A stretch of DNA of 64,000 bases from a virus. Shown here piece by piece: positions 531 to 32,231 of this stretch. The stretch covers positions 32,001 through 96,000 of IMG/VR virus record IMGVR_UViG_3300005676_000020. One strand, given 5' to 3'. Both the position numbers and the translations under genes were made by a program. Each line of letters starts with the position of its first letter. Position 1 is the stretch's first letter. A model generated the notes under the pieces. It did not search any database, was not told the origin of the DNA, and saw only the letters and a program-made list of their open reading frames with translations.

Positions 531-1000
531 TAGACTTAAAAAAAACAGAAAAGGATCTTTTCGGCAAGGTCGCAAATATCCTTGTAGCGTTCATGGTGCT
601 TGCTTTATGGATAAAGACAATGCACCTTTTTGAAGGGTGGTTATTCTCCACCGAACTGATTTCCCAACTGTTTTTCTACCAGTATCAACACCCGCAACTT
701 ATAAATATTTACCTGTTCTGTATAGCGGCGCCGATAGGGGAGGAAGTAGTCTTCAGGCATTTCCCTTTACAGGTGCTGAAGTCCGTAAAGAAACCGGATC
801 TGTATTGGCCGGTAATACTGATGACCTCTGTCATTTTTGGATGGTTACACCAGGGTCACCTGAATATTCTCATCCAGGGTATGATAGGTCTGGTATGTAG
901 TGTTTTGTACATAAAAAATAATCATTGTCTATTGTCTGCCATAGCGTTACATAGCCTATGGAATTTGGCTATCCTGCTAAATTTGTTTAACTTTAACTAA
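527..1000 (+). CDS. CPBP/Abi (CAAX-like) intramembrane glutamic endopeptidase
   Basis: APIGEEVVFR, FGWLH and HSLWN motifs; multiple TM segments. Confidence 0.9.
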   Translation: MIDLKKTEKDLFGKVANILVAFMVLALWIKTMHLFEGWLFSTELISQLFFYQYQHPQLINIYLFCIAAPIGEEVVFRHFPLQVLKSVKKPDLYWPVILMTSVIFGWLHQGHLNILIQGMIGLVCSVLYIKNNHCLLSAIALHSLWNLAILLNLFNFN

Positions 1001-4000
1001 TGGCGAATACGTGTTCAATACTCCGTAATAAAGAGACAGGTGAGATAGAGAAAGTACTGGCCCCAAATGGTCAGGAAAGTATCTTATGGAAAAGTCTCAT
1101 AAGCATAGGGGAGCTTTCTATCAATAAAGAAGATACTTTACGTACCTGGGCGGTTGCCTATACAACAGGGTTTAAAAATGAATTTGGAGACTGGGAGCTT
1201 TTCCAGAAGGCCAGGGAGCTGTCAGGTTCTATAGAAAAAGCTTTCTACAGAGACCTTTTTGAAAATGAACCAGAACAGTTCCTGTTTGAAATGGCTCAAC
1301 AGCTCCGGTCGTCTGATATAGAAGCCCAGGCTGCCAGAAATGTAATGGGCAACGACCTTGCTCAGATAGCTCTACAGTTGTTCCCAAACTCCGTAGTAGG
1401 TTCAAAATACACACCTCAGTTTACCGGTAAGGTAGACAGTAATGGTGAACCTTTATTAGAACATGTTGTCTCTCCCCCAGGTCTCCCTTGGTTTGAAGAC
1501 GCTATACCCTACACTCAAAATTTTGAGGAAATACAGTTCCCGGACCTTGCCAAATACGATGACGAAATCATGCAGCAACTGCCGGTTAAGGTTGGAGCTA
1601 AAAAGCAAGTGATAAAGATAAAGGGGTTGGATGTCACCGAGATGAAAGCCAAACGACCTAAAGAAAAAAAGGCTGTATTTATAGATTCAGACACCTTCCA
1701 GGATATAGGTAAGTTTATAAAAGACGGACCTAAGGACCCTACTGACTTCCGTCATGACATTATACGAATAGGTAATAACATATATGTAAAATCCGGTGAC
1801 AACCTGGCATTCAAGCAGTTTTATCCCTTCCTGGACTTTTCCAAGAAATATAAGGTACGGGGCCGAACCTTTTACTATCTCACCAATAACTTTGTCTACT
1901 CCCCCGGTTCAAGTATCGGCGCTTCCAGGGAGTACAGTATCATGAAAGCCAGGGCTATTAAACAGGGTAAGTTTGGTATAAAACCTATAAAAACAAAACC
2001 CAGGTTGACTAAGAGGGCGAAAGAGGCCATAGAAGCATTTATAGAAAAGAAGAGGAGTTATATACCTTTGATAAAGGAGGAAATAGAAAAGTTTGTTTAT
2101 CAAGTAGATAAGTCCCGACAATCCGCTTCTGACCATTTAAGGTCGATAGCTAACTCATACGAGTCACTGATGGACCCTTCACATAAGGAGGAGTATATAA
2201 AGATATTAGAAAGCCGGTTTCTTAGACAGACCGAAGAGTTTTTTAAAACATATGAGGGTGATGACGGAGAGGATATGATAAAGTCGACAATGAGCACTCT
2301 ATCAAACTATCTTCAAAAATTACCGGCACTGGTATTGTTTAATATGGTACATGACCAACCTGTCTCTGAGTTCTCAGCAATGGAATCTGAGATAGATGAT
2401 GAATTTTCTGAGTTCATATATAGATTTTCTGTTAGTTCAGTCATACCAGAATCGTTTATTTCCGGAGAAAATGGAAGGAGGATAAGTTTAAAAAGTATAT
2501 TTGATACGGTAAATGTAGAAATATTCAGCGACCGGGGCTTACGTGAGAAGTTGACCGCTGACGAAATTATGAAAATATCCAAGTCAGGTATCTTCAGAAA
2601 AGTCGACACGAGTAATTTGAAAAGGACAAAGGCGTTAGCTGTATTTTTGGAAGTTTATGACAGACACGGTCATGTTGCAGCTAATACTTTTTGGTCTGCG
2701 TATCGTAAAAATATAAATACTGCTTCTGCCGAAATCATTCAGAAATATTTTAATAAAAATAAGGGTAGAGAGGAAGATTACAACTCTATAATGGATGATA
2801 TAAGAGATACCCTAAAGGGTGTGGATAAATACTCAGGAGCTTATGTAGATAGTGAGTCTATCGAATACCGAACTTGGTTTTCTAGAATAAGTTCCAGCTT
2901 TGTCCCATTGATCGATATAGCCGAAGGTATATATAAATCAGCTTCTGGGTCCGTAGAACTTCACATACTAAACCGGATGTTGTTAGAAGTTCCTGAACTA
3001 GGTGACGACCCTTACCAAAGATTTAGAAAAATTGTTGACCTAATATTTACCAATGAAGAAGACTTATCAGAAGAAGATAGGTCGGTGTTAGAATATCTCA
3101 AAACTACAAAGGCTAAATCTTTGTTTAACAATATATTGAGAGCTTTCCGTGAGCTACTGAGATTTATCATATACGGTCCAGATTTCCAGTCACGTTCTGC
3201 ATTTGAGGCGTTAAGTGCACAAATGGATAAAGTACATGAATATCTTGCCGGCAGGAATACTGTTTTTTCACTTCAAATCGGAACTGGTGAGCGAAAGGAA
3301 GAAATTGTTGTTAACGATCAAGTAGTAGAGATTAAAAATACGGAAGACCGTGTGAGATATGGGATTTCATCTAATATTGAAGTTGACACTGATGAGAATG
3401 GTGTTTCTGAAACGCTTCTTGAAAGATTTCCGGAAGGCTCTACTCTTCAATATGTTCGGGTGCTTGAGGCTCCTAATCTTAAATCAGTGCCGGTAGATTT
3501 CCGGTTCCCTCATCAGCTCCAAAAATTTATTGCCCCCAATCTAAGCATTCAGGATATACCAGAAGGAGAGTTTAAGTCTTTCCTGTTAAATGAAATGCGT
3601 TATGTTAAGTTAAAGGATTATGAAAAGGAGAGGCTTCGTGAAAAAGGAGGTCTCGGTATGATTTTTAACATTTCATCAGCTGTTTCTAAGTTATACACTT
3701 CCGGTAAACCTAAGTATTCATTTGAGCATAAGGCTCTTTTAAAAACAAATCTAGGTGTCGGGTCTTTACCTATGTACACTCTTGGGGAAAACGGTAGCGT
3801 GTTCAATATCGAATTTGGAGCCGGGGCAAATTCTCCTTTTCCAGAAAGTCTTTATGAAAGATTTAGACTTGACCACGGTCTCAGAAAGTTGTATATAGAT
3901 AAACCTATTGGATGGTTCGGTGGGGTTTATTCAGTAGAAAATAAGACTATATCTGTTACTGAGGTTCAGTCAGACCTTTTACAAAGGTCAAAGACTATCG

Positions 4001-7000
4001 GCGAACTTAGGTCTAAGGTAGAAAATTACTATGACGGTTGGCTTTATGTTTTTACCGGAACTGCAATCAATTTGCTCCTAAATTACTATGAGGATGTAAC
4101 TCATATAAGAATACCGACCTCAGAAACTTACAAAAAGTTCAAAAAAGAAAGTCCTTCTCAATATTATGACAAGATAGCTTCTGTATTCCCGACAACTTTA
4201 TCAGAAGACGGCCGCTGGCATGTTATAAAAGTATCGGATATTTTTGGTAAAATCAGTCCAGATAAAAAATCCCAGTTTGATTTTATGATAAAAGCGGGTG
4301 TCAGAGCTGGGGTTAAGGAGCAAAAAGAGATAACACCAGACCTTCAATCTGACAGGGATAATGCAATGGACATATTGGAAAGTTTAAAAGAAAGTGAGAT
4401 TCTTGGTTCTTACCTGAAAAGCTCCCCTGACCATGTGAGTGAAATAGAAAAATGGATTGAGAGGGAGTTCTCTAATGAGAAACCTATGACCGATGATACT
4501 AAAGGAGGAGAGCTTGTTGGACCGGATGGCGAGGTGATTGAAGAGGATGAAGGTTATGAAGAGACAGATATGGACCGGTTAGTAAGAGAGACAGCTGCTA
4601 ATAAAAAAAGAGAGTATGTTTTCGATCTCGACTGGGCTTTAGATGAGTTGTCTGCGGCTATGAAAAATAACGATACTGCAAGGGTGAATTTTATAAAAAG
4701 GCTTTTGGAAGAACACACGTCAGGTAAAATAAACTTCAACCGTTCTTCTTCAGGTAATTACAAACAAATACTGTCTCTAGATAACCAAAAGATTTTTGAA
4801 GAGCTTATTGCAAAAGGACTTATTACTGAGCGGCGCTGGAATGGTATGTACTTTGTTCCAAAGCAATACCGGGAGCCGTTCAGGAGACCTCCGTTCAGCT
4901 ATCTCAAAAAAGACTTTCGTGATGGTCACTTCCTTGACAAGAACAAGTACGAAGAGTTAAAGGCTATCATAGAGGTTCGTGGACTCAGTTGGCTTGATGT
5001 CAGACCTTCTAATTCAGGAGACTCTTATGTTGTAAGAATATTTCCTACCAGACAAGAGTCTATGCAGACTCGTCTCCATGAGTTTGCTGGCAAAGATGCA
5101 TTCATAAAGATTGCTGACCGCCTGTCTAAGCGACTAGGAGTTCCTTATAAGATTATTGATGCTGAACAGGCCCTGAAGATAACAGAGGACTCACAGATAC
5201 CTTGGAATGGTGAAGGGGCCTTTGCCTATAAAGGTACTGTATATGTTCTGCAGGAAGCGTTGTCTCTGGAGAATGCCGTACACGAATTCTCTCACTTCTT
5301 CATCGAAGCTGTCTCCAAAGAGTCTCCTTACCTGTTCTCAAAACTCTATAAGCAGTTAAAAGATGATCCTTATACCCGGGAGAGATACCTTGACCTGGTA
5401 GAAAGACTATACCCTGACCTATCTGAAGAAGATAAGGTCAAAGAGGTTATGGTTAGGGCGTTAACTGACAAAGCCCTGGGTCTCATAGATGAGCGTGGAA
5501 ATGTTATCTTAGAGGCTATCCGTAAGATTTTCAGAACTCTCGCTAATATCATCCGTACTCTGTTCGGAGTTAGTGTTAAGAACCTGAACGAAAACACCAC
5601 ATTAGACCAGCTGGCAGCAATACTTCTCGGAGAGAATGATGGTGAAGTCCTAGACCTTGGCGACCGTAACACAGGCTTCTTTATGAACCTGTTTCCGATG
5701 TTCAACCGGGACATTGCCAACCAACTGGAAAAGCTTACCGGCTCTACTGTAAAAAGTAGTATAGACTCATTCTTTACTGTTACAGATGCCCACTATCAAA
5801 GGCTTCGTCAGGATAAGGACCTGGAAAAGCTGAAAGAGATACTCAGTAACCAAAAGGGTACTACTCTCGTATCAGATGAGCGTCAGATACTTATGAGAGC
5901 TGCAGACTTTGCCAGAACCCTGGAGGAGAATATGAAAGTCGACCGTGCCGCTCTTATCACCTTTGCAGAGGCTATTGAGGGTCAGGAGGTTATAGCTAAG
6001 AAGATGGCCGATCACGTAGCTTCTGTCGTAACCGATAAGGATATGTCCACTCAGGAAAAGCTGGCTATATTCCGTAAATATAGTTTCATAACCAAAGAGT
6101 GGACTACTGTCGTAGACCTTTTCATGAAGGCTATCAAGGACTCTCCTGTGGGCCGTGGAAGAAATCCCTTGAGCGATTCTATCCAAAACATGATATCAGA
6201 CTATAAGTTTATTGACAACAAGATAAAGGATTTTTACAAAGAGGACGGTCTGCCATCATTGTTCAGAGAAGAGATAGAGGGGAACATCTACTATCAGGCG
6301 GCGATGAAAGAACAGGAGGACAGGATAAAAGAACTGGAAGAAGCCTACAAAAAGGATAAAAACCCGGCTATAAAGAAAAAACTAGACAAGGAGCGCGGAC
6401 TCTTAGAGAGATATAAGCTTACCGACGAAACCCTTGCCAAGTACTTATCAGGTGAGATGGGCGATACCAATCACTATTCAATGTACCTGGAAAGCTACAC
6501 CTCCAATCCAGATCCGATTGTTGGTCACTTCGCTAACTGGTTCATGAAGCACAAGTTCCGTGCTCAGTCAAGAGCTCAGCAGCGCATGACAGCCTTCGAG
6601 AACAAAATCTCAAAGATTTACAAGAAACTAGGCTACAAGCCAAAGGACTTCCAGAAAGTATCAGAGAACCTGGTACAGATAGAGACCTTCTTTGACGGCT
6701 ACCGTAACTTCAAAGGGGAAGAAAGAAAAGCCTGGACGTTCATAAACCAGTATGGTGACGATGCCAACGGCGTCGGCTGGCAGTTTGAATATAACCGTCT
6801 TCTCCAGGAAAGGGAAAGTGCCAAGCAACGGATGCACTCCCCTCTCCGGGCTCCCGGCTATGAGAATATGACCGGTGAAGAAGAGTATCGCCGTAAGAAC
6901 CAGGCCTTTGAGCAGTTTAAGCTTGACTATATGTTTGATGAGGAAGCTGATGTAATCAAAGAAGCAAGGCTTTTCTGGTTCCGTGACGCAAACACCCATA

Positions 7001-10000
7001 AGGCTAAGATGCGCAGGGAAGAGGTCTTAAACGAGATACGGGCACTGGACTATAAGGATTTCTCTAAAGACGAGGCTCTGGAAAAAGTAACGCAGAGTAA
7101 AGCGCTATGGAGAAAGTACCGTCAGCTTGGCTCTATCTATGATGAAATGGGCAACAAAAAGGAGGGTGACGAGCTGGAAATAGCACTTACCATACGCGAA
7201 TACAACGAGAAATACGGTAATTTATACGAATACGTAGAGATTTCAGGGGCTTTTGAGTCTAATCTGAAGTCTCATGAGCAGCAGGTTGCCGATGACCTGA
7301 TGAGTTCTGGTAACTACAAGACAGAAGCAGAAGCCAAGGCTTCTCCGGAGTTCCGGGCGGCCATTCAGAAATGGTACCGTGACAATATCCGTATCACCCT
7401 TACAGAAACCTTCTATAAGGAGCGTTCTGACATTGCTGAAAGGTTAAAAGCCTTTTCAGAAAGCCTTGGTGATCAGAAGATTAAAAAGAATCTGGAAGAA
7501 GTTTCCGAAGCGTGGTCTGAAATAAACCGTATAATCCAGGGTAACCGGGACGATGACCGTCAGCCTATTGGCACCGACCTTTCCGATGAGCAGCGTAAAA
7601 GAGTCCTTGAACTGCAGCAAAAGGTCATGGACCTGAACTCTGCATTTAACCAGGCCAACAACCTGAGCGATGAGGAGGATATTGAGTACGGTCAATATGT
7701 CCTTAAAAATAAGGTGTTCTTCATGGAATTGACTGAGCAAGAGTACGCCAGGATGAAAGAATTGGAAGAAAAGGCCGGTATAAAGCTTACTAAAGACCAG
7801 TACCTGGAAAAAAAGAAGATATTTGATGATTTAAATGCCCTACAATCGAAGATCGCCACGCCCTACTATGTAGACACAGTTAATGATTTCCTGGCCGCAT
7901 CGGGCTCAGAATTGCGTATAACGCCACTCAGCGCTGACGAACTGCTCACGGCTGAGGTAATCCAGCCTATTTTGAGGAAAAACCCAGAATTTAGGAAGTG
8001 GTGGAACGAAAATCACCTGGAAAAACAGATATACGACAAGACTGTCGATGCTGTAGTCCTTAAATATAACAGGTCTTATGTCTGGAACCGGAATGTGCCT
8101 AATGACGAGATGTTCAAGACGCTACTCGATAACGGCGACTACGAAGGGTTGTCAAGGTACAAGTCCCCTTATCTTGAGGTAAAACCGGCCCAGGAGTACT
8201 TTTACCGCCGTCTGAAGCCTGAATTCAGGCATTTCCAGTCCCGGGAAACTCTCTGGATAACCCATGACAACCGCGGAAACTGGCTACCTAAGCCTACAGA
8301 GGCTACTGCCACACCGGCACAGAAGGAGTATATGCTCAAGCATAAGATCCCTTTTGCCAAGCCTCGGTTTGAAAATAAAAAGTATTTGGACCTTCGCGAA
8401 AATAAAAAGGACGAGTTTGAGTTACTTGAAGCCTTTAAACAGTTCCACCTTGAAAGTCAGCAAGATCTGGCCAGGTATGCCCGTCTGGGTCTTGAGGTAC
8501 CACGTCTTCGTAAGAACAGTGTAGAGAACGTAGACCTGTCCAAATTGGCTGATAAACCTAAGGATTGGTGGAATAACATAAAGGGTTGGCTTGGCGCCAT
8601 GTTTATGAAGCGCCAGGATGACTATGAACTGGGTACGGGAAGCTATATAGCGCCGGCTAACCGCGCTCAAACATATGTTCTATCTGACCTTATGGGCGAC
8701 CAGATTAACTCTATACCTATCAAATACATGTCACATGTAGAAACTGACCTGGTTTCTATGGACATTGGCAAAGCTGTAGAGATGTACGCTGTATCTGCAG
8801 AGACCAATAAGGTTCTGCACGAGATAAACCCCATGGCAAATGCCCTTAAAGAAGTGCTTTCTGACCCGGAAAATAAACCAAAGGACCTTACAAAGAAGAG
8901 ACGTAACATCATCAAAATCATCACTGATCCCTTAAAAGGTTCTACCAATAACAACGCAAACAAGAAAGGTAACTATAACAGGCTGAAAATCATAGAAAAC
9001 TTCCTGGAAAGAGAGCTTGAAGGAGAGGTTAACATACAACAGTTTGGACCGTTTATAGAAAAAATCGCCCATGGCCTTATGAAGATAGGTGCCTGGGGTT
9101 CATTAGGTGGTAACATATTTGCCGCGCTAAAGAACGCCGTCGGCGGCCAGATACAGAACAACCTCGAGTCGGTCATGGGTCAGAAGTTCACGCCAAAGAC
9201 CATGATGCAAGCAGATTTGGAATTTGGCAAATTGATGGTCGACCTGATGCGGGACTACTACCAGATAGGCGATAAGTCCCTGTATACGCAGATGTTTATC
9301 CTGTTTGACCCGCTTAACTTCTTTACGCAGAAAGCCGGTTCTAACTTTTCAAAAACTGTAACCCGGGACGCTCTCGACCTGCGCTGGATTATGGGAATGC
9401 AGAAGTTCGGCGAGATCAACATCCAGGGTTCCGCCTGGCTGGCGATGATGCTCCACCAAAAGGTAGCGTTTACTGACCCTCATTCCGGGGTGCAAAAAGA
9501 AATCCCATACCTAGAAGCGTGGGAACTCAAAGATGGTGTACTTTCCTTAAAAAAGGGAGTAGACAGTAAATGGGACAGAGGTAACTCGAACTTTTTGCAA
9601 TTCTCCGCATCGGTACATAAAGTGAATGAGTTAAACCAAGGTGCTTACTCTGAAGAATCCCAACCAGAGATTAACAGATATACTCTTGGTAAATTATTTT
9701 TATTCATGAGAAAATTCTATATACCGGCTTCGGTAAATAGGTTTGCTCCAAAAAGGTATAATGCCGGTCTCGGCTCTTTCCGTCAAGGTTACTGGATGCC
9801 TCTTTTTGAGATGATAAAGAATACGGCTACGGGTCACCCTCTGATGCCTGGTACTGACGATTTCAAGGTGATGTACTCTGCTTCTGAACGTGCTGCGGCT
9901 CTCCGTGCTGCTTCTGAGCTTGCTACTATTGCCCTTATTGGCTTGATGATTAAAGCTCTTGGATTCAACGATTCCGACGATGAAAAATACGATAAGCTGA

Positions 10001-10365
10001 AGGATAACGATTGGTTCCACAACTTCGCCATATACCAGCTGATGCTGATTAAATCTGAGGCTGAAACTTTCATTCCGTTGTTTGGTATGGGCATTAACGA
10101 AACAGTTAGGTTCCTTGGAACCCCTACTATTGCGTTTAACACCGCCCGGAGATGGGTTAAGCTGGCTAACGACTTCGTTTTGTGGACTATCGGCTCCGAC
10201 GCTGCCTTCTATCAGCAGGCTTCAGGTATATATGACGAAGGACAGATAAAGTACCTTGCCGACCTGTACAATATCATCGGCTGGAAGAACTTTGCCTATA
10301 TCACTTCAAATGAAGACCTGCAGAAAGGTATCGTAATGTATTCGGCCATGCAGAAGAGGATATAA
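1000..10365 (+). CDS. Giant virion/ejected (cargo) polyvalent protein, 3121 aa, with zincin-like HExxH domain
   Basis: Size, position, N-terminal APNG.ESIL/FGDW/DSNGEP motifs, HEFSH at 5281-5295, long helical C-terminal region. Confidence 0.75.
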   Translation: MANTCSILRNKETGEIEKVLAPNGQESILWKSLISIGELSINKEDTLRTWAVAYTTGFKNEFGDWELFQKARELSGSIEKAFYRDLFENEPEQFLFEMAQQLRSSDIEAQAARNVMGNDLAQIALQLFPNSVVGSKYTPQFTGKVDSNGEPLLEHVVSPPGLPWFEDAIPYTQNFEEIQFPDLAKYDDEIMQQLPVKVGAKKQVIKIKGLDVTEMKAKRPKEKKAVFIDSDTFQDIGKFIKDGPKDPTDFRHDIIRIGNNIYVKSGDNLAFKQFYPFLDFSKKYKVRGRTFYYLTNNFVYSPGSSIGASREYSIMKARAIKQGKFGIKPIKTKPRLTKRAKEAIEAFIEKKRSYIPLIKEEIEKFVYQVDKSRQSASDHLRSIANSYESLMDPSHKEEYIKILESRFLRQTEEFFKTYEGDDGEDMIKSTMSTLSNYLQKLPALVLFNMVHDQPVSEFSAMESEIDDEFSEFIYRFSVSSVIPESFISGENGRRISLKSIFDTVNVEIFSDRGLREKLTADEIMKISKSGIFRKVDTSNLKRTKALAVFLEVYDRHGHVAANTFWSAYRKNINTASAEIIQKYFNKNKGREEDYNSIMDDIRDTLKGVDKYSGAYVDSESIEYRTWFSRISSSFVPLIDIAEGIYKSASGSVELHILNRMLLEVPELGDDPYQRFRKIVDLIFTNEEDLSEEDRSVLEYLKTTKAKSLFNNILRAFRELLRFIIYGPDFQSRSAFEALSAQMDKVHEYLAGRNTVFSLQIGTGERKEEIVVNDQVVEIKNTEDRVRYGISSNIEVDTDENGVSETLLERFPEGSTLQYVRVLEAPNLKSVPVDFRFPHQLQKFIAPNLSIQDIPEGEFKSFLLNEMRYVKLKDYEKERLREKGGLGMIFNISSAVSKLYTSGKPKYSFEHKALLKTNLGVGSLPMYTLGENGSVFNIEFGAGANSPFPESLYERFRLDHGLRKLYIDKPIGWFGGVYSVENKTISVTEVQSDLLQRSKTIGELRSKVENYYDGWLYVFTGTAINLLLNYYEDVTHIRIPTSETYKKFKKESPSQYYDKIASVFPTTLSEDGRWHVIKVSDIFGKISPDKKSQFDFMIKAGVRAGVKEQKEITPDLQSDRDNAMDILESLKESEILGSYLKSSPDHVSEIEKWIEREFSNEKPMTDDTKGGELVGPDGEVIEEDEGYEETDMDRLVRETAANKKREYVFDLDWALDELSAAMKNNDTARVNFIKRLLEEHTSGKINFNRSSSGNYKQILSLDNQKIFEELIAKGLITERRWNGMYFVPKQYREPFRRPPFSYLKKDFRDGHFLDKNKYEELKAIIEVRGLSWLDVRPSNSGDSYVVRIFPTRQESMQTRLHEFAGKDAFIKIADRLSKRLGVPYKIIDAEQALKITEDSQIPWNGEGAFAYKGTVYVLQEALSLENAVHEFSHFFIEAVSKESPYLFSKLYKQLKDDPYTRERYLDLVERLYPDLSEEDKVKEVMVRALTDKALGLIDERGNVILEAIRKIFRTLANIIRTLFGVSVKNLNENTTLDQLAAILLGENDGEVLDLGDRNTGFFMNLFPMFNRDIANQLEKLTGSTVKSSIDSFFTVTDAHYQRLRQDKDLEKLKEILSNQKGTTLVSDERQILMRAADFARTLEENMKVDRAALITFAEAIEGQEVIAKKMADHVASVVTDKDMSTQEKLAIFRKYSFITKEWTTVVDLFMKAIKDSPVGRGRNPLSDSIQNMISDYKFIDNKIKDFYKEDGLPSLFREEIEGNIYYQAAMKEQEDRIKELEEAYKKDKNPAIKKKLDKERGLLERYKLTDETLAKYLSGEMGDTNHYSMYLESYTSNPDPIVGHFANWFMKHKFRAQSRAQQRMTAFENKISKIYKKLGYKPKDFQKVSENLVQIETFFDGYRNFKGEERKAWTFINQYGDDANGVGWQFEYNRLLQERESAKQRMHSPLRAPGYENMTGEEEYRRKNQAFEQFKLDYMFDEEADVIKEARLFWFRDANTHKAKMRREEVLNEIRALDYKDFSKDEALEKVTQSKALWRKYRQLGSIYDEMGNKKEGDELEIALTIREYNEKYGNLYEYVEISGAFESNLKSHEQQVADDLMSSGNYKTEAEAKASPEFRAAIQKWYRDNIRITLTETFYKERSDIAERLKAFSESLGDQKIKKNLEEVSEAWSEINRIIQGNRDDDRQPIGTDLSDEQRKRVLELQQKVMDLNSAFNQANNLSDEEDIEYGQYVLKNKVFFMELTEQEYARMKELEEKAGIKLTKDQYLEKKKIFDDLNALQSKIATPYYVDTVNDFLAASGSELRITPLSADELLTAEVIQPILRKNPEFRKWWNENHLEKQIYDKTVDAVVLKYNRSYVWNRNVPNDEMFKTLLDNGDYEGLSRYKSPYLEVKPAQEYFYRRLKPEFRHFQSRETLWITHDNRGNWLPKPTEATATPAQKEYMLKHKIPFAKPRFENKKYLDLRENKKDEFELLEAFKQFHLESQQDLARYARLGLEVPRLRKNSVENVDLSKLADKPKDWWNNIKGWLGAMFMKRQDDYELGTGSYIAPANRAQTYVLSDLMGDQINSIPIKYMSHVETDLVSMDIGKAVEMYAVSAETNKVLHEINPMANALKEVLSDPENKPKDLTKKRRNIIKIITDPLKGSTNNNANKKGNYNRLKIIENFLERELEGEVNIQQFGPFIEKIAHGLMKIGAWGSLGGNIFAALKNAVGGQIQNNLESVMGQKFTPKTMMQADLEFGKLMVDLMRDYYQIGDKSLYTQMFILFDPLNFFTQKAGSNFSKTVTRDALDLRWIMGMQKFGEINIQGSAWLAMMLHQKVAFTDPHSGVQKEIPYLEAWELKDGVLSLKKGVDSKWDRGNSNFLQFSASVHKVNELNQGAYSEESQPEINRYTLGKLFLFMRKFYIPASVNRFAPKRYNAGLGSFRQGYWMPLFEMIKNTATGHPLMPGTDDFKVMYSASERAAALRAASELATIALIGLMIKALGFNDSDDEKYDKLKDNDWFHNFAIYQLMLIKSEAETFIPLFGMGINETVRFLGTPTIAFNTARRWVKLANDFVLWTIGSDAAFYQQASGIYDEGQIKYLADLYNIIGWKNFAYITSNEDLQKGIVMYSAMQKRI

Positions 10366-10703: not shown

Positions 10704-11315
10704 TTATAACAATCTCAGCACCTTGATTGAACCTCCTGTGATTTTCGGAAAGACGTCCCATCCGCCAGGGGCTTGATCTGCGGGAATTCTATCCATCTCC
10801 ACTTGTACATCAAACACTCTGGGTTGAGGTAGCAGTTTGTTTATAAGATATTTGAATGCTTTGCCCTTTTCTGCGCCATACTCATTTCTCATCTTTACCT
10901 CATTGAGTTGTTCAGAGTTAATAGAATCCAGGATGTGAATTACATCCTCTTCATTGAACCTCTTCTCATTAAGAGACTGTGCTGTTTTAAAACCTTCGAG
11001 GAAACCGCAATATGCATAGTCATCGAAGTCATTTACTGCATACTCAGCCGCCAACTCCTCAACATCAACCCATCCAATCTTCTTACAATCTTCTTCTGAT
11101 AAAGCAGAGAAGTCTACTGAAGGTAGTTCAGGAATACCTGCTATAATTTTCTTTTGGTTTCTTTCATCAATGTCGTTGAGGTTATCCACTTGCCAAATTG
11201 TCCATTCACCTGTAGTTAGTTTCTCTGCTACATGGTACGGGAAAATGTCTCGTACATCTGGTTCATAACTAACCAGTATCGGCTGTGGTAACATCATTAT
11301 CAATTGTATATTCAT
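10704..11315 (-). CDS. Hypothetical phage protein
   Basis: ORF; likely start MNIQL. Confidence 0.65.
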   Translation of the reverse strand: MNIQLIMMLPQPILVSYEPDVRDIFPYHVAEKLTTGEWTIWQVDNLNDIDERNQKKIIAGIPELPSVDFSALSEEDCKKIGWVDVEELAAEYAVNDFDDYAYCGFLEGFKTAQSLNEKRFNEEDVIHILDSINSEQLNEVKMRNEYGAEKGKAFKYLINKLLPQPRVFDVQVEMDRIPADQAPGGWDVFPKITGGSIKVLRLL

Positions 11316-11597
11316 AGTCTTTTTTTTATTTAGCACCCTCTTGTCTTATATTGTATGTTTAAGCTCAACGCTCTATACACCTTTATAAGAGTAGGGTCAC
11401 GTAGTTAATAGCAGTTAATTACTCTGCATTTATACTCCAATAAAGCAGTAACATTAACTACTTGCTGAGAACTTGTTCATGTTGTAGAGGTAAGTTGCTG
11501 AAGCGACTCTCTTAGCACTCCTTTCTCAAGGGAACAACACGCTACGTCTTACAACGTATATCCAATTTTTAAAGTGGTTTTCGACATTCAGTCCACT

Positions 11598-11629
11598 ATT
11601 GTTTATTCAAACAATATTTTGTATATTTG
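11598..11629 (+). promoter_or_regulatory. Bacteroidota sigma70-type promoter (ATTG-N20-TATATTTG) for GIY-YIG gene
   Basis: TATATTTG at 11622-11629, ATG after a 4-nt spacer. Confidence 0.7.
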
Positions 11630-11633
11630 TAAT

Positions 11634-12173
11634 ATGAACTCTGGCATTTACAAGATAACTAATACTGTAACAGGAGATTTTTATATTGGTTCCTCATGTC
11701 AATTAAACAGACGTAGGAGAAATCATTTTATATCTCTTGAAAGAAACATTAGTCATTCAAAAATATTACAAAGAGCATATAACAAATATGGTAAAGATAA
11801 TTTGTTTTTTGAAGTATTAGCTATATGTCCAAAAGAATATCTACTAAAACTTGAACAATGGTTTATTAATGAACTTAAACCAAAGTACAACATTTGTAAT
11901 ATAAATCCAAATACAACGGAAGGATATAATCATACTAATGAAGATAAAGCAAAAATGAGACAAATAAAATTATCTCAAAATGCTGTAAAATTATATCAGT
12001 ATAATGATAATCAACAACTTATAAAAGTCTGGGATTGTTGTAATGATTATGCTAACTATTACAAAGTATCACCAGCAGCTTTACATAAAGCATGTAGAAA
12101 GGGTCAGAAATGTGCAGGTTTCAAAGTATCTAAAACACCTATTCACCTGCACGATTTCAGTAACCCTCGTTGA
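11634..12173 (+). CDS. GIY-YIG homing endonuclease with probable NUMOD-type C-terminal DNA-binding region
   Basis: SGIYKITN...FYIGSS, LQRAYNKYG, EQWFI, P.YN; AT-rich; opposite strand to its neighbours. Confidence 0.9.
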   Translation: MNSGIYKITNTVTGDFYIGSSCQLNRRRRNHFISLERNISHSKILQRAYNKYGKDNLFFEVLAICPKEYLLKLEQWFINELKPKYNICNINPNTTEGYNHTNEDKAKMRQIKLSQNAVKLYQYNDNQQLIKVWDCCNDYANYYKVSPAALHKACRKGQKCAGFKVSKTPIHLHDFSNPR

Positions 12174-12526
12174 CTTCTTAGTGTGTTGTATTCTTTAAGA
12201 GATTAGCAGCCTCACTGTTCGTAATACCCTCATTGAATTGTACTATCAGTATGTCAACTACGCCCAGTTTATGGATTATCCCGGGCGAAAATCTATTGTG
12301 TTTGGTAGCCGACCTTTCCGCACCTTATCTAACCCCTGATAGCATCTGCATCACTCGGATTAGGGGCTGACCAATAACACGGTACATTTATGGTCATTTA
12401 ACGGATGGGCTTTAAGCGTCTATAAACCCGGACATCTTACCGCCTAAGCGTCCTGTACCACCTCACACAATAGAGTTTTACTGACATCTTGCTGATCCGC
12501 CCCATGTCAGTCTCTTCATATATAAT

Positions 12527-12559
12527 AAAAAACCCCTCCGGAGAGGGGTCTGTTTTTTT
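12527..12559. terminator. Bidirectional intrinsic terminator after RNR
   Basis: ACCCCTC/GAGGGGT stem flanked by A- and T-tracts. Confidence 0.8.
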
Positions 12560-31912: not shown

Positions 31913-32231
31913 ATATAAGACTACACCAATACTGGTGTCCCTTCAGGGCCTCCGCCCTTGTGGAGTATCTTTCCACTACGTCGCCACCTAAACCCCCAGT
32001 AAATATACAAGTCTCGTAAAGTTGAGGTTCTCCTTTAAGCCAGTTATGATCTATACCAAGGAATACGGTGCTTATCATAAAGTCACCTTTGCGAAAGACA
32101 CCTACAAACCTCTTCGGATCGTCATAACTGAACTTGGTAGCGAACTCTATCACATCCTCGGTAGGTACGTGATTTCCTTCTTCGTCCAGGTAGTAGTATC
32201 TGAGCTTTACCTGGTCATCATTCTTTTCCAT
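31905..32231 (-). CDS. Phage hypothetical protein (STVFLGIDH...ET..F)
   Basis: Recognisable phage motif; function unknown. Confidence 0.7.
   Translation of the reverse strand: MEKNDDQVKLRYYYLDEEGNHVPTEDVIEFATKFSYDDPKRFVGVFRKGDFMISTVFLGIDHNWLKGEPQLYETCIFTGGLGGDVVERYSTRAEALKGHQYWCSLIYA

Follow-up and report, generated by a model that had tools for sequence, protein, structure and literature searches.

A minus-strand structured RNA gene in a phage genome, probably built of a family core and a lineage-specific 5' extension, with a GIY-YIG endonuclease gene in place of one stem

The intergenic region between the genes for the RNR large subunit and for a 203-aa protein, in a 64,000-nt stretch (hereafter the window; positions 32,001 to 96,000) of the complete 142-kb virus record IMGVR_UViG_3300005676_000020, very likely encodes a minus-strand non-coding RNA composed of a family core and a lineage-specific 5' extension, in which a stem, P0, has been replaced by a GIY-YIG gene. 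The structure of the RNA, its strand, its family membership and the limits of the insertion are established. The 3' part (11330-11558) is a complete family member preceded by a hairpin (11574-11596), and in the mechanism we propose the 5' part (12153-12511) would be the extension. P0, which joins extension to core without gaps in relatives free of the endonuclease, would have lost its place to a free-standing GIY-YIG gene that points in the opposite direction and appears to have its own promoter of the Bacteroidota type. The insertion occupies a peripheral, variable position and leaves every conserved helix of both parts intact. New here are a covarying 5' extension, which makes the extended form about three times as large as the core, a modular RNA design in which conserved helices carry exchangeable inserts, and a homing endonuclease lodged in a non-coding RNA gene without an intron.

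The features of the locus are collected in Table 1. The terminator that follows RNR serves both strands: it ends the RNR gene on the minus strand and, on the plus strand, the mRNA of the endonuclease. From there an ORF-free stretch of about 360 nt extends to the GIY-YIG gene, and another of about 300 nt lies beyond it; the GIY-YIG gene is the sole ORF of at least 60 aa in the RNA region, which bears out the preliminary description of two ORF-free arms. On the RNA strand no sigma-70-like or TAnnTTTG promoter was found above chance. ARAGORN detects no tRNA or tmRNA near the RNA, and the sole tRNA of the window is 43 kb distant. The RNA region matches no Rfam model, either at gathering thresholds or at E values up to 10.

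Several observations concern the surroundings of the locus. In Pfam the RNR protein matches an intein splicing domain (27.3 bits, below the cut-off of 35.8) and a LAGLIDADG endonuclease domain, and its counterpart in the syntenic relative L170 (546-3155) has 869 aa versus 1152 aa in the window; close relatives may differ in the intein content of RNR. An ORF of 3121 aa (1000-10365, plus strand) converges on the locus; with neither a PHROG match nor a DFDxD motif, it cannot readily be taken for a crAss-type virion RNA polymerase. The same phage is also represented by a 28-kb assembly (L163, Logan SRR2082605), which is 100% identical and whose position 1 corresponds to window position 12456. This assembly breaks inside the RNA, at the long-range stem, which may reflect population heterogeneity at the locus.

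Table 1. Features of the RNA locus in the window, in 5' to 3' order along the RNA strand
Feature	Position	Strand	Remark
RNR large subunit, 1152 aa	12571-16029	-	Upstream neighbour of the RNA locus
Bidirectional intrinsic terminator	12530-12551		Also kept in L170
5' hairpin of extension	12480-12511	-	Identical in L170-L173; absent from L164, L180, L181
Domain A, 10-bp long-range stem closing a multi-hairpin domain	12292-12474	-	RNAalifold
Hairpin b, 7-bp stem, conserved loop	12261-12287	-	Five stem versions, all pair
Domain closed by GUUGAC/GUCAAC stem, swappable interior	12169-12258	-	Comparison with relatives
Block c, small conserved hairpin truncated at the endonuclease junction	12153-12168	-	Homology to relatives
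GIY-YIG homing-endonuclease cassette	about 11597-12152	+	Replaces stem P0
GIY-YIG ORF, 179 aa	11634-12173	+	Pfam, PHROG
Upstream hairpin, 4-bp stem, conserved loop type	11574-11596	-	Family-typical
Family core	11330-11558	-	nhmmer and CM R1, full length
P1, GUAA hairpin	11543-11558	-	Core
P2	11535-11541/11478-11484	-	Core; one G-U pair
P2a and invariant loop	11518-11534	-	Core
Pseudoknot	11523-11529/11465-11471	-	Core; strands complementary
P3	11453-11461/11401-11409	-	Core
P4	11384-11396/11336-11350	-	Core
Tail	11330-11335	-	Core
203-aa gene	10707-11315	-	Begins at 11315, about 15 nt past the RNA 3' end

Judged by its sequence, the left arm is a complete and ordinary member of an uncatalogued family of phage RNAs. 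Positions 11330-11461 hold a 17-mer that is invariant in the family, together with P3, the invariant junction, the two-part P4 and the 3' tail. An nhmmer profile of 26 members, spanning the whole 244-position alignment, gives a single match in the window, with an E value of 3.4e-32; it lies at 11541-11329 (minus strand) and covers positions 37-242 of the profile. CM R1, a covariance model of the 5' half built solely from members unrelated to the window, is matched over its full length (model positions 1-118) at 11563-11453 on the minus strand, with 84.4 bits and an E value of 1.3e-15. The genome of the window phage carries one copy, and the core is presumably still made there. Its P1 has a 6-bp stem wholly different in sequence from that of other members, with the GUAA loop retained, a variant carried also by L254. 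Of 88 members, 63 have a motif resembling the hairpin at 11574-11596, placed between 100 and 450 nt upstream of the conserved 17-mer; the hairpin may act as a promoter element or belong to the RNA itself.

The family is widespread and supported by covariation, yet has no name and no entry in Rfam. The 17-mer matches 90 IMG/VR contigs, and all 89 loci checked among them are profile matches, most with the remaining conserved blocks in the same order; the count of at least 90 IMG/VR contigs is one obtained from a single exact 17-mer. The family is absent from Rfam 15, and a literature search found no paper defining it. Among 185,579 prokaryote genomes the RNA occurs on only three MAG contigs (1,958, 5,724 and 100,089 nt), and the family therefore seems to be specific to phages. 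The preliminary description, which had suggested a new RNA class, was thus right in part: there is no Rfam family and the right arm is lineage-specific, while the left arm is no one-off but belongs to a family spread over at least 90 IMG/VR contigs.

Members are about 190-330 nt in size and pseudoknotted. The structure was derived from 26 aligned members, with the window and its kin excluded. P1, a hairpin with a GNRA loop, stands just 5' of P2, a long-range helix that encloses P2a; P2a is a 4-bp stem with an invariant 9-nt loop on top, and this loop forms a 7-bp pseudoknot with the strand following P2. P3, the invariant junction, the two-part P4 and the conserved 3' tail follow. Across these 26 independent members 93.8% of cells pair, compared with 39-47% when partners are slid. 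Covariation among homologues, proposed earlier as a check, is present, with double changes at 19 pairs, and the observed values were reached in none of 500 shuffles. When 86 distinct members are compared, covariation extends to all 17 pairs of the 5' half and 96.6% of cells are paired, in an alignment that leans towards the structure because it was fitted to the model. The pseudoknot is invariant in the main group, preserved by double changes in L204 and L254, and preserved by U-G wobbles in L206 and L210. All nine helices listed in the preliminary description turn out to be perfectly or near-perfectly complementary, and seven of them correspond to helices kept in relatives (the long-range stem, hairpin b, the GUUGAC/GUCAAC stem, the upstream hairpin, P3, P4a and the domain A hairpins); its list lacked, from the left arm, the P1 GNRA hairpin, P2, P2a and the pseudoknot.

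Members reside in many unrelated intergenic contexts with differing flanking genes. This variety of neighbours favours an RNA acting in trans and disfavours a cis-acting leader. We favour a stable and abundant trans-acting RNA, which might be a scaffold or a decoy, or possibly catalytic. Of 60 members examined, about 26 have a tRNA or tmRNA gene somewhere in the locus retrieved, and the RNA is perhaps tied to tRNA and tmRNA biology. That the RNA is a long structured 5' leader, regulating the downstream 203-aa gene in cis, would agree with the distance of only about 15 nt from the RNA end to the start of that gene and with a second association: a family of proteins of about 230 aa, whose N-terminal domain is common with that of the 203-aa protein (hhalign 83%, E 9e-6), is encoded within 4 kb of the RNA in 23-28 of 86 loci, in every case on the same strand (e.g., L182 7296-7979, L185 576-1283). 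Placement of the related protein, however, varies between -3.3 kb and +3.7 kb with respect to the RNA, many members are followed instead by a tRNA or tmRNA gene, an ORF of an unrelated kind or a further RNA module, and more distant homologues of the 203-aa protein have no gap upstream of them at all, so that a leader is quite improbable. The predicted structure of the 203-aa protein (pLDDT 68) has no significant PDB match in Foldseek, with weak hints of a small beta-barrel.

Two further observations were made at family loci. Two copies of the RNA occur in L216, L228, L263, L187, L191, L194, L220, L223, L253 and L281, some of them in tandem and only about 250-350 nt apart. In L186 (about 4165-4205), L220 and L232, sequences resembling the 5' half of a tRNA (acceptor and D arm) begin 5-10 nt past the RNA tail, where ARAGORN makes no tRNA call. 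These could be unusual tRNA-like or tmRNA-like genes, in which case RNase P could define the 3' end of the RNA.

The right arm (12153-12511, minus strand) is shared with only a handful of relatives and, from its distribution, is probably a 5' extension peculiar to a small phage lineage. Homologues of the 203-aa protein led to L164 and, through its 90% cluster, to L170-L175, all of which match both arms and lack the endonuclease. L170, an 81-kb contig, has the gene order of the window: dUTPase, RNR, an 845-nt gap, a 217-aa gene and a giant ORF. Identity between the window and these relatives reaches 94-100% over 110-155 nt of non-coding sequence, compared with 74.5% in the adjoining coding sequence. 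A conserved 24-mer identified four more metagenome versions, L178, L180, L181 and L182, in each of which the element is co-oriented with its flanking genes, although the flanking genes are not the same. None of the other 89 family loci checked contains a match to domain A, a conserved word of domain A gave only a chance hit and no true match in IMG/VR, and exact-pattern scans with two window-specific words found nothing.

Within the extension, helices persist as sequences change. An RNAalifold consensus of the window, L170, L180 and L181 contains 70 pairs over domain A and hairpin b, nine of them compensatory. L164 retains the domain A stem around a different interior, and L181 has two inner domain A hairpins whose stems are wholly different and whose loop is conserved. 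Hairpin b exists in five stem versions (window; L170/L181; L164/L180; L178; L259), with pairing intact in all five. Positions 12169-12258 are 100% identical to L164, and in L170, L178 and L259 the GUUGAC/GUCAAC stem that closes this domain is retained around unrelated interiors, with a C-G to U-A change in L178, L180 and L259. About eight sequences, all highly similar to one another, make up what is known of the extension, and the long-range stem is invariant among them.

The strand of the RNA is evident from folding energies in the relatives that lack the endonuclease. With sense taken as the minus strand of the window, z scores are -5.8 (sense) versus -0.9 (antisense) for L164, and -4.6 versus -2.1 for L170, in agreement with the large structured phage RNA proposed earlier for the minus strand. 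In the window itself, z scores relative to shuffled sequences are modest and clearest for the minus strand of the right arm: -3.05 (minus) versus -1.97 (plus) for the right arm, and -1.3 (minus) versus -2.2 (plus) for the left arm. Numerous G-U pairs occur on the RNA strand in both the family core and domain A.

In every relative without the endonuclease, a stem, P0, lies between block c and P1; it covaries and has a variable tip. Block c, P0 and P1 are consecutive in these relatives, with spacings of 0-5 nt, and no promoter-like element or terminator lies between them. Because there is no room for a promoter or terminator between block c and P1, extension and core look like one RNA, and the whole unit measures about 750-800 nt. 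Block c, moreover, is found exclusively upstream of a core. These observations weigh against the reading in which two independent RNA genes stand side by side, the right arm being a separate lineage-specific structured RNA, the left arm the family RNA, and the endonuclease lying between the two genes rather than within one RNA. In support of two genes, the window core has its own family-typical upstream hairpin, two family copies are present at some loci, and some non-coding islands (L178, L259) contain further RNA-like modules in varying order, so the two arms could be separate RNAs. On balance we regard two genes as possible but doubtful, and treat extension and core as a single RNA gene. 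As to the islands, a second conserved RNA-like module with a terminal closing helix lies downstream of the core in L178 (about 2370-2560); the same module lies upstream of hairpin b in L259, from 700 to 420 nt upstream of the core. Both islands seem to have been assembled from movable RNA modules.

Compared with its relatives, the window locus is a mosaic. Domain A is L170-like (95.7% identity) and the next domain is identical to L164; the stretch from the cassette through P2 is unique, and P4 again resembles L170 and L175. This pattern fits recombination at conserved helices, possibly through co-conversion during homing.

The gene that interrupts the RNA in antisense encodes a GIY-YIG endonuclease by its matches to Pfam PF01541 (E 8e-8; 32.9 bits, cut-off 22.6) and PHROG 314 (E 6e-24). 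The gene is missing from L164, L170-175, L178, L180-182 and L259, and in none of the other 89 family loci checked does a GIY-YIG-like gene come closer to the RNA than about 1.8 kb. From the domain and this patchy presence at homologous loci, a homing enzyme is predicted, which would make the gene a selfish passenger. Along the RNA strand, the place of P0 is taken in the window by the antisense endonuclease, the hairpin at 11574-11596 and the P1 variant. Homology to the relatives enters the 3' end of the ORF by 21 nt, which places the right edge of the insertion at 12152/12153; with that edge, the last six residues and the stop codon (12153-12173) are read from native sequence of the RNA gene, the C-terminal codons being drawn from block c and from the GUCAAC stem strand at 12169-12174. 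The excision proposed earlier, 11601-12143, came close to the cassette limits given in Table 1 without equalling them. Together with the exchangeable inserts, this invasion amounts to a natural insertion map of dispensable parts of the RNA.

A TAnnTTTG motif (11622-11629) lies 4 nt before the ATG of the endonuclease, with no Shine-Dalgarno sequence, and recurs in the closest homologue, L083 (2986-3003), which has 61% identity and is likewise antisense to its neighbours. The motif suggests a promoter of the Bacteroidota type and a near-leaderless mRNA, and hints at a host among the Bacteroidota. Among 80 homologues of the endonuclease in IMG/VR, only coding DNA is common to the window; none has the flanks, and none has the RNA nearby. 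The arms, therefore, are not part of the endonuclease cassette. Beside the endonuclease of L083 there is a 13-nt match, which is probably due to chance. In L083, too, a 12-nt direct repeat (3510-3525, 3691-3706) brackets a non-coding stretch of about 190 nt after the endonuclease, and may be an insertion scar.

An endonuclease gene within a structured RNA beside RNR is the classic setting of a phage group I intron, and the RNA might accordingly be taken for a self-splicing group I or group II intron, or a remnant of one, with the endonuclease as its homing enzyme. We consider this highly improbable. RNR matches its homologues to the last residues and is followed by a terminator ahead of the RNA, and the 203-aa gene is found in full elsewhere; both flanking genes are thus complete, as the preliminary description had it in reporting neither flanking exons nor a group I core. 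The endonuclease is antisense to the RNA, its homologues never carry the arms, no Rfam intron model matches at E<=10, and the RNA occurs in many unrelated intergenic contexts.

A link to a cultured phage comes from the family core. Searched by blastn against 50,697 phage records, the whole RNA region has no match, and the core of a relative matches only Cellulophaga phage phi14:2 (KC821624), weakly (E 0.5); phages whose RNR is related show no synteny with the window and carry neither arm. The phi14:2 homologue is at about 3115-3363 of the record, on the plus strand, and its 5' half scores 87.7 bits with CM R1, a model for which phi14:2 is one of the training rows. According to a preprint on this phage (Drobysheva et al., bioRxiv 10.1101/2020.03.07.982082), two intergenic regions are highly and persistently transcribed, with transcripts that appear early and persist, and an abundant "long non-coding RNA" is described; the preprint gives neither a structure nor a family for it. 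The GenBank record shows a long gap on either side of gp010-gp012: one (2905-3589) contains the family RNA and three tiny antisense ORFs, and the other (about 4102-4601) overlaps a tmRNA (4031-4502). From the gene order, one of the two reported RNAs is very probably the family RNA and the other the tmRNA; equating the "g004-g005 junction" of the preprint with the family homologue depends on the gene order as interpreted here. The family RNA is then probably among the most abundant transcripts of a cultured marine crAss-like phage, and phi14:2 offers a cultured system in which the function of the family can be studied. Of the annotated tiny ORFs, gp012-gp014 overlap the tmRNA (L185 2413-2884), which is called by ARAGORN and matches Rfam with 46 bits (E 2.5e-15), while gp007-gp009, antisense over the family RNA (KC821624 3106-3431; L185 1488-1813), are probably spurious.

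This probable transcript also bears on whether the conserved pairings act in DNA, that is, whether the locus is a replication origin, a packaging site or a recombination hot spot whose inverted repeats mimic RNA helices. Conserved stems with swapped interiors do indicate frequent recombination, and the assembly of the same phage breaks within the region. Against a DNA element, folding energies differ strongly between the two strands, G-U pairs would turn into A-C mismatches on the opposite strand, GNRA loops and a covarying pseudoknot are present, and the region of the phi14:2 homologue very probably corresponds to the abundant transcript described in the preprint. The DNA reading thus has very little to recommend it.

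A bolder version of the RNA gene can be entertained for the relatives without the endonuclease, in which the 750-800-nt unit, from domain A through hairpin b, the swappable domain, block c and P0 to the pseudoknotted core, would form a single ornate RNA and represent a new class, the invariant core being catalytic or binding a ligand or protein, and the conserved helices acting as sockets. We hold this to be rather unlikely. If it were true, interchangeable peripheral modules would explain how a 550-nt endonuclease gene is tolerated, and the family would be a major, abundant player in infections by phages of Bacteroidota. The composite gene described at the outset, with core, extension and a displaced P0, remains the reading we prefer.

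Among known systems, the phi14:2 RNA is closest to that of the window. The two share co-linear blocks, P2, P2a, P3 and P4 with compensatory changes, the invariant loop and the tail, and the phi14:2 RNA has the orientation of its neighbouring genes. Its P1 is a shorter, 3-bp GUGA hairpin. In phi14:2 the core stands by itself, followed by one gene and then the tmRNA, whereas the window has the 5' extension of about 360 nt, the inserted endonuclease, and no tRNA or tmRNA nearby.

ROOL (RF03087) and GOLLD (RF01998) are, like the window RNA, large, multi-domain and phage-borne, and sometimes lie near tRNA genes. The window RNA differs from them in architecture and conserved motifs, and the family core is much smaller. 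The preliminary description had raised a divergent ROOL or GOLLD, which the RNA is not: neither model matches at E<=10 in the window and L164 or at E<=0.1 in L170, L182, L259 and phi14:2. An Infernal search against Rfam, suggested at the same time, likewise gave no family match for the window, L164, L170, L182 or L259; the models for OLE, RNase P, tmRNA and 6S were among those without a match, at E<=10 for the window and L164 and at E<=0.1 for L170, L182 and L259.

T4-like phages carry free-standing GIY-YIG homing endonucleases, the Seg and Mob proteins, such as SegB in a tRNA gene region. The window endonuclease resembles these in being a free-standing GIY-YIG gene with a putative promoter of its own within a non-coding or RNA-gene region, and the mosaic flanks are as co-conversion would predict. 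Unlike Seg and Mob genes, it lies antisense inside a structured RNA gene, and that RNA gene supplies its C-terminus and stop codon.
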